Below, piece by piece: positions 46,219 to 47,313 of a stretch of 64,000 bases of DNA. The DNA is from a virus (lineage: Duplodnaviria; Heunggongvirae; Uroviricota; Caudoviricetes), in the IMG/VR virus record IMGVR_UViG_2541047759_000001; one strand, 5' to 3'. A model generated the notes under the pieces. It had not been told where the DNA came from, searched no databases, and saw only the letters and a list, made by a program, of their open reading frames with translations. Every line of letters begins with the position of its first letter. Positions within the stretch are counted from its first letter, which is position 1. The position numbers and the translations under genes are program-made.

Positions 46219-46449
46219 TCAACGGCGCAGGGATGATATTTTGTGCTTGAAGTGCCTCCCCGACCATTCAGATAGTCGGGGAGGGGTATTGGGATTATAC
46301 GCAATCAGTTTTAGTTAAAGACCGAAGCTCTCGAAAAATCTTTCTCCAAAACCAGAATGGAATTGATTGATTTTGATAGGATCTATAACGTCGTTACCTT
46401 AAACGGCAAAACCACTCAAAAACAAACTTAATGCATTGAATATAAAGGA

Positions 46450-47313
46450 TTAATCATCTAATTCGCTCACCTTCTTATTCAGCAGACGAGAAGCGCGCCA
46501 GTAAACCAGCAACATCAGGCCCATTACGATAGTCAGCGTAATGCTGGTGGCTGCACCAAACGGCCAGTCACGAATATTGAGGAACTGTACCTTGATGACG
46601 TTACCGATCAGCAGGTTTTTCGCACCGCCCATCAGGTCGGACACATAGAACAGGCCCATCGCTGGCAGCATCACCAGCAGACATCCGGCAATAATTCCCG
46701 GCATCGTTAGTGGGATAATGATGCGGATAAAGGTCTGCAACTTGCTGGCACCGAGATCGCGCGCCGCCTCAAGCAACGGCTTATCCAGTTTTTCGATACT
46801 GGAGTACAGCGGCATCACCATAAACGGCAGCAGAATGTAAACCAGACCGATAATCACCGCACTAGGCGTGAACATGATGCGAATTGGTGTATCGATAACG
46901 CCCAGCCAGAGCAAAAACTCGTTGAGATAGCCTTTGGTGCTGAGGAAAATTTTCAGCCCGTAAATACGAATCAATGAGTTGGTCCAGAACGGAACAATCA
47001 GCAGAAACAGCAGCAGCGGACGCACCTTGTGTGGCAGCTTCGCCAGAAACCAGGCAAAAGGATAGCCCAGCACCAGGCTGGCGAGGGTGGCGATCAGCGC
47101 CATATTCAGCGAGTGCAATAGCACTTCAAAATAGAGCGGATCGAGCAGACGCGTGTAGTTATCCAGCGTAAAGACCATTTTGACGAAACTGGCGTCGTCG
47201 CGGGTCAAAAAGCTGGTGCCAATGATCATCAGGTTGGGCAGAAAGACAAACAACACAAGCCAACCGACAATAGTGACAATCACTACATTCTGGAACTTAC
47301 TTGTGTTCTTCAT
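46450..47313 (-). CDS. potB: Spermidine/putrescine ABC transporter permease PotB
   Basis: Sequence recognised as E. coli PotB; annotated start may be slightly downstream. Confidence 0.95.

Follow-up and report, generated by a model that had tools for sequence, protein, structure and literature searches.

Prophages at the boundary of potB and potC have been recorded under several names. Sp6 of strain Sakai sits between potC and potB (PMC8190617), PP_potB was described in O157 clade 8 (PMC9997748), Phi-CFT073-potB has been mentioned as well (PMC4632033), and potC is given as a site of Stx phages in LEE-negative STEC (PMC8065619). The element described here occupies the same chromosomal site as all of these. 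It was studied on a stretch of 64,000 nucleotides, referred to below as the window. Its junction with potB is an ordinary attR of a known prophage class, at a site that is already published. The literature names this site by its flanking gene only. A map at sequence level, which appears to extend this description, comprises the 14-bp core, a probable 7-bp overlap TGAATAA, the arm repeats, and evidence that Citrobacter and Pantoea use the same site.

Several features are shared with phage 21 and e14, which are inserted at icd. Like the window element, they possess a lambda-type integrase, are located in the 3′ end of a protein-coding gene, and carry a substitute for this end. The Int of phage 21 is also the nearest characterised relative of the window Int (44% identity). 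In the record of phage 21, a pseudogene of icd is annotated beside xis-int; in this phage att/icd′ is upstream of xis-int, whereas in the window type att is downstream of int, as in lambda. The window type further differs in its target gene, in a substitute of just five codons, and, unlike the insertion at icd, in splitting an operon. The lambdoid prophage Rac in ttcA also changes the terminal residues of its target protein on integration and excision (PMC4632033), with an integrase and a target that differ from those of the window prophage.

Similarity to lambda includes the order xis-int-attP, the arm-binding domain and the residues R-K-H-R-H-Y of the integrase, three tandem arm sites beside int with one or more in the opposite arm, a short core with a probable 7-bp overlap, and a hairpin beyond attP at the position of sib/tI. 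Differences are seen in the integrase itself, which is 35% identical to lambda Int, in the arm site, where TTTTGGRGA is not that of lambda, and in the P arm, where only one such site is recognised. The attB of lambda is between gal and bio, while that of the window type is inside a gene.

Our reading, held with a probability of about 0.9, is that window positions 46468–46481 represent the attR of a lambdoid prophage of ~46.6 kb, integrated into the 3′ end of potB by site-specific recombination of a tyrosine integrase. Alignment with the unlysogenised potABCD locus of BL21-AI, the comparison proposed in the initial annotation, places the breakpoint at 46468, where homology to the empty locus stops inside potB. 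Identity to BL21-AI runs to ...CTGCTGAATAA(A/G)AAGGTG and is followed by immediate divergence. In empty-site genomes, every megablast match to the window starts exactly at this position. The core lies in the last 24 nt of potB, and its end is 11 nt upstream of the potC ATG.

At the native potB/potC junction (...AAGGTG GAA CTC GA ATG A TCGGT), PotB has 285 residues ending in ...KKVELE, and its gene runs into potC through an ATGA overlap; the native potB end reads ...GTGGAACTCGAATGA and the native potC start ATGATCGGT. The window potB (46450..47313, minus strand) is chimeric, since 282 of its 287 codons are host-derived and the remaining five, with the stop codon, are phage-derived. This phage-borne 3′ end (46450..46467, minus strand) continues from ...AAGGTG as AGC GAA TTA GAT GAT TAA, giving SELDD and a stop in place of native GAA CTC GAA TGA, which encodes ELE and a stop. 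The window PotB thus ends in ...KKVSELDD, with an altered tail that is two residues longer than the native one. Four variants of phage-encoded PotB tails were found, SELDD, SEIGD, SDIDN, and ATEIDN, with the stop codon at the same position in all of them. The P arm of the phage supplies a short in-frame substitute 3′ end, by which PotB keeps its full length with only its five-residue tail altered.

The initial annotation was right in placing a prophage/chromosome junction beside potB and the end of a potB-length ORF at 46450 (stop codon 46450–46452, minus strand). It had put the junction at the potB stop and potC start, with ATGATT as the retained beginning of potC and the prophage inserted at the 5′ end of that gene; in such a model potB would be native, the first potC codons kept, and potC truncated or disrupted at its 5′ end. 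Besides the end of the ORF, an ATG that overlaps the last codons as in the native ATGA speaks for it. Against this, the window diverges from the native sequences given above already after ...AAGGTG at 46468, which is 18 nt further in and inside potB, the end of PotB is altered, and all lysogens examined have a full potC of 795 nt at their other junction. The ATGATT motif (46452–46457) is itself phage-borne and opens an ORF of nine codons only (MINPLYSMH), and its ATG is missing from other P-arm variants, being GTG in L007 and ATA in the O157/O111 type. We have also considered this ATG as a vestigial potC start and rejected it because it is unconserved among P-arm variants. Insertion at the potB stop and potC start is thus refuted by the alignment, leaving this model with practically no probability; recombination took place within the 14-bp core.

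Upstream of potB in the operon follows potA (47297..48433, minus strand), with the native operon promoter upstream of it, towards pepT (48638–49909, plus strand). The RefSeq annotation of SFAD3, the closest lysogen, agrees for potB, potA, and pepT, and the SFAD3 sequence is identical to the window over 45900–47000.

The attR common core (46468..46481, minus strand) reads TGAATAAGAAGGTG on the potB sense strand. It was delimited by alignment to the empty site and by the presence of the same 14-mer at the int-side junction, and no other sequence is common to the empty site and the two prophage junctions. Homology to empty sites starts with the first base of the core on the attL side and stops with its last base on the attR side. 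The second prophage-end copy was obtained from related genomes (3566–3579 in L003), and BL21-AI has a single copy with A at position 8. In the O157/O111-type element the identity comprises just 12 bp, TGAATAAGAAGG. The core region is structured as CCTTA-TGAATAA-GAAGG, with 7 bp enclosed by an inverted repeat of 5 bp, and in Citrobacter the repeat is perfect, CCTTC-TGAACAA-GAAGG. The inverted CCTTA and GAAGG segments flanking TGAATAA are candidate core-type sites.

Position 8 of the core (46474 in the window) is polymorphic, and both A and G alleles were found among empty sites. Within the single genomes O111 FWSEC0005 and PSJ-22, this position is A in attL and G in attR. To the right of it, shared identity in FWSEC0005, which has an O157-type P arm, is only 4 bp long, AAGG. 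Because the attL/attR difference at position 8 is followed by AAGG only, strand exchange is most parsimoniously limited to TGAATAA (46475–46481), the candidate 7-bp overlap region. In the proposed mechanism, the attP core TGAATAAGAAGGTG would recombine with an identical or near-identical host sequence, most likely within TGAATAA. The excised circle would join the P′ arm, TGAATAAGAAGGTG, and AGCGAATTAG, and the restored attB would read ...AAGGTGGAACTCGAATGA.

As first annotated, potC and potD are absent on the potB side, and tblastn gave no match to either gene anywhere in the 64-kb window. The window shows the potB side and int, and since it ends 14 nt short of the int stop codon, the int-potC side was read from related lysogens. 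Among the complete genomes of the collection searched, none was identical to the window; the best match reached 99.7% (31000–37000), and SFAD3 reached 99.4% and 98.1% over the prophage. In SFAD3, the int stop codon is followed by a 144-bp P′ arm, TGAATAAGAAGGTG, and then GAACTCGAATGATCGGT, with an int-potC gap of 166 bp in all. The segment GAACTCGAATGATCGGT contains the displaced native potB tail and the start of a complete potC, followed by potD. The potC product of SFAD3 (WP_000580316.1) has the same accession as that of BL21-AI, and the native Shine-Dalgarno region is kept. The potC gene retains its start codon and the purine-rich AAGAAGGTGG immediately upstream. After integration, potCD has only 25 nt of native upstream sequence.

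The potC side, with int adjoining potC, is thus present in the near-identical SFAD3 element, and the arrangement int-xis-P′ arm-core-potC was also observed in O111:NM, O113:H21, PSJ-22, 19AR0254, and SMN197SH3. The int-side junction of O157 AR-0427 is 99.4% identical over 321 bp. We infer that the genome from which the window derives has the same attL, ~160 bp past the left edge; its int would end in ...GTTGGTTATTTGA, followed by the P′ arm with three TTTTGGRGA repeats, TGAATAA[G/A]AAGGTG, and GAACTCGAATGATCGGT. Integration would place at attL, directly downstream of xis-int, the native end of potB that the phage displaced, together with the Shine-Dalgarno sequence of potC and both potC and potD in full. 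The initial annotation had named an intact potC with native promoter coupling at the other junction as an observation that would speak against it; in related lysogens potC is intact, while the native promoter coupling is missing. In SMN197SH3 (L018 48846–49858), about 1 kb of DNA with two antisense genes, one of them DUF2335, sits between the int stop codon and the attL core, showing that cargo can be carried between int and core.

The integrase is located at the far end of the element, as stated in the initial annotation. The int gene (1..1105, minus strand, with its last 14 nt past the window edge; window position 1 corresponds to L003 3407) encodes a lambda-type tyrosine recombinase. Profile search detected the arm-binding domain PF09003 (E = 3.8e-21) and the tyrosine recombinase domain PF00589 (E = 2.5e-18). 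Catalytic R, K, H, R, H, and Y all align with lambda Int, in the motifs VTGQR, KTG, TFHEQR, LLGHK, and RY, and their counterparts in lambda Int are R212, K235, H308, R311, H333, and Y342. An excisionase gene, xis (1074..1343, minus strand), overlaps the start of int; its PF07825 match scores 23.2 bits against a cut-off of 23, and RefSeq annotates it as an excisionase in SFAD3. The Int domains, the catalytic residues, the duplicated core, arm repeats in both arms, and the adjacent excisionase together point to a lambda-type recombination module.

Related integrases are found directly upstream of potC in Citrobacter spp. and Candidatus Pantoea alvi (L010, L013, and L014), with identities of 76%, 68%, and 44%, the latter two resting on partial matches. 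These relatives carry the same three arm repeats, and their core is adapted to the host codon, reading TGAACAAGAAGGTG in Citrobacter. The P′ arm is conserved nearly base for base across E. coli, Citrobacter, and Pantoea, including blocks such as TTGTAAAAT. The occurrence of Int relatives upstream of potC with the same P′ arm in Citrobacter and Pantoea indicates that this Int family has stayed paired with the potB site across genera.

The P arm of attP (46219..46467, minus strand), delimited by alignment of three P-arm variants, is the non-coding stretch that separates the last gene of the phage from the core, and it essentially matches the interval marked in the initial annotation. It contains only small ORFs of 24–51 aa, without support, and no Rfam family was found in it (45900–46700 searched). 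A sub-threshold Rfam match to IS009 (RF02111; 112.5 bits, gathering score 117) lies at 45975–46178 (plus strand), inside a tail-fibre assembly fragment. The candidate arm-type integrase-binding repeat TTTTGGAGA (46343..46351, minus strand), recognised by sequence, is 130 nt from the core start, and the same 9-mer has three tandem copies in the P′ arm beyond the window. The TTTTGGRGA repeats are accordingly positioned at -80, -67, and -56 in the P′ arm, adjoining int, and at +130 in the P arm, and are predicted to be Int sites. In lambda attP, the arm sites P′1–P′3 adjoin int. Int-binding sites are annotated on both sides of the core in the lambda record. All three of the otherwise divergent P-arm variants keep the P-arm repeat, and its sequence recurs in the P′ arms of the Citrobacter and Pantoea relatives. 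Close to it, an IHF-like site AATCAATCAATTC (46360..46372, minus strand), read by eye, has one mismatch to WATCAANNNNTTR, which is perfect in the L006 and L007 variants, and IHF would probably bind there. The IHF-like motif and the block CTTTATATTCAA near the core are also kept in the three P-arm variants.

A GC-rich hairpin with a 13-bp stem (46254..46283, minus strand) is predicted in the P arm, with -24.2 kcal/mol and z = -4.86 on the minus (potB-sense) strand, and its stem is conserved in L007. A U tract is lacking, neither strand shows a run of T, and the hairpin was not scored as an intrinsic terminator. A canonical terminator was therefore rejected, as the stem is stable but the U tract is missing. 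In the lysogen the hairpin is 3′ of potB on the potAB transcript, and in the circular phage it is downstream of int, beyond attP. The sib/tI region of lambda is likewise located downstream of int, beyond attP. The comparison with sib/tI, and with it a possible role as an RNase III or stability element, is one of position only.

With a reconstituted attP (P′ arm, core, and P arm) as the query, the phage collection yielded no record of a free phage in which attP is uninterrupted. Five records matched, each with one half only, and these matches are prophage excerpts that include potC or end at the core. Two “phage” records matching the int-side half were rejected as independent attP sequences, being prophage excerpts that run into potC and potD.

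All DNA to the left of potB belongs to a lambdoid prophage, with the tail-fibre region followed by Lom, tail, head, terminase, lysis, Q, replication, CI/Cro, dicB region, exo, xis, and int. The last phage ORF before the junction (45952..46218, plus strand) is a C-terminal fragment of a tail-fibre assembly protein (PF02413, annotated as partial). Two copies of the 3′ fragment of this gene are present, 45053–45153 and 46102–46202 (101 nt, 85% identical), and they bracket a class I SAM-dependent methyltransferase gene on the opposite strand (45227–45895, minus strand), which has the appearance of a moron that entered the tail-fibre region by duplication. Elsewhere in the prophage, tRNA-Met(CAT) and tRNA-Arg(TCT) genes (13476–13726, plus strand) are located downstream of the antiterminator gene, and RefSeq calls the corresponding tRNA of SFAD3 tRNA-Ile. 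The large ORF after the tRNAs (15221–17197) is annotated in SFAD3 as a SASA-family carbohydrate esterase. The repressor ORF (5711–6349, minus strand) encodes 212 aa with HTH_3 and Peptidase_S24 domains, while the RefSeq annotation of SFAD3 starts internally and gives just a “LexA family protein” of 112 aa. The annotation of this near-identical prophage lists no stx genes.

Between roxA and phoQ, the window contains a further mobile element of ~11.2 kb (51232–62458), bordered by an imperfect direct repeat of 75 nt whose 31-nt core is perfect. It carries genes for a P4-type integrase (51307–52557), a D5-like primase (55638–57392), an SSB (57956–58378), and a lambda-gpE-type major capsid protein (59000–60055), and looks like a capsid-encoding phage satellite. 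In O157, a 10.4-kb “prophage” is listed at roxA/phoQ (PMC8190617).

The window is collinear with the SFAD3 potB-to-potC prophage over 46.4 kb, in two blocks of 99.4% and 98.1% identity with a 218-bp gap. Such a mosaic relation to the closest complete genome might also be expected if the potB junction were secondary, formed by recombination or inversion between prophages or by an assembly error, and if the int at 1–1105 were not the partner of the att site. Large inversions with breakpoints in the potC-site prophage have indeed been documented in O157 (PMC10925052). This origin is nevertheless very improbable, as collinearity extends from end to end, the window Int and the SFAD3 Int are identical in 368 of 368 residues, the P-arm repeat equals the repeat in the P′ arm beside the same int family, and the same junction of potB, P arm, and tail-fibre assembly fragment recurs in 907 genomes.

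The state of the site was surveyed in 5426 complete E. coli genomes. The uninterrupted potB/potC site was found in 3800 of them and the int-P′ arm-core-potC junction in 1398, while the P arm of the window with the tail-fibre assembly (tfa) fragment accounts for the 907 genomes mentioned above. The remaining ~230 genomes show other states of the site, for example ~1 kb of cargo between int and core.

In the genomes examined, the potB-site elements of O157, O111, and O113 share with the window type the int family (372 aa), an identical Xis (WP_000003742.1), and the same P′ arm and core, and in these lysogens potB likewise has 287 codons. In O111 and O113, the 372-aa Int, represented by closely related accessions, and the identical Xis adjoin potC. 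The O157/O111 elements differ in cargo and P arm, with only ~32 bp beyond the core in common with the window. They carry the T3SS effector genes espK, nleL, and espN beside potB and a PotB tail ATEIDN, whereas the window element has tail-fibre assembly fragments and the methyltransferase moron at the potB end and a PotB tail SELDD. Effector genes at the potB junction comprise espK in both EHEC strains, with nleL and espN also in O111; they were located at L017 6441–7802 and L016 313–6653 in O111:NM and at L006 790–2151 in O157:H7.

For annotation, these results mean that the insertion point is in potB, not in potC, that the PotB tail is phage-encoded, and that potC is intact at the other end in the lysogens examined. 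Since potC is intact at the other junction, the label “disrupted potC” would be wrong.

The initial annotation had also raised the uncoupling of potCD from the potA promoter. Its physical part stands, as in the lysogen potCD is ~46.6 kb from this promoter; the effect on transcription is one that we infer. A single strand carries exo, xis, int, potC, and potD, and in SFAD3 potCD comes directly after int. A scan for promoters between the xis region (L003 2000) and potC did not find a sigma-70-like site with at least 9/12 matches, although a weak or non-consensus P′ arm promoter would escape such a simple consensus search. Terminators were likewise not found by consensus scan on the int/potC strand from int to potC, nor in the P arm. 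In the lysogen, potCD would have lost transcription from the potA promoter; its expression would rely on weak read-through out of the int unit, or on a weak promoter that escaped recognition. We regard it as plausible, at somewhat less than an even chance, that potCD is off the potA promoter and on weak int read-through, with PotABCD activity reduced or following the state of the prophage. A more elaborate arrangement appears unlikely, in which the two halves of the spermidine transporter would be under different control in about a quarter of E. coli strains. Here potAB would remain under the PotD-regulated potA promoter, and expression of potCD would track leftward/int transcription of the phage, with low levels in the lysogen and high levels after induction, making PotABCD uptake and PotD/Trg-mediated chemotaxis to spermidine dependent on the state of the prophage. 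The antisense cargo of ~1 kb between int and potC in SMN197SH3 counts against strong selection for int-to-potC read-through.

The same anatomy may also have no functional consequence, if potCD has or gains an adequate promoter in the int 3′ end or the P′ arm and uptake is normal; this we consider a serious possibility, again just short of evens. Lysogens and non-lysogens have the same PotC (WP_000580316.1), the ~26–30% of genomes with an occupied site show no visible decay, and the Shine-Dalgarno region of potC persists inside the core and beside it. Cross-genus P′ arm blocks such as TTGTAAAAT could include a promoter element, but their conservation is equally explained by binding of Int and IHF, and the promoter scan described above gave no site in this interval. 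Gene decay might also fail to appear because prophage residence times may be too short to show it. The literature searched contained nothing on potC/potD expression or polyamine uptake in potB-site lysogens. A transcriptome table with potA-D fold changes in three strains (PMC7649339) was set aside, as the potB-site status of these strains is not given.

PotD is needed for the Trg-mediated response to spermidine (PMC6194112), and any effect on potCD would therefore extend to chemotaxis. Such a prophage is carried by ~26% of E. coli genomes, and in these the separation of potAB from potCD may alter the uptake of polyamines or the chemotactic response to spermidine.
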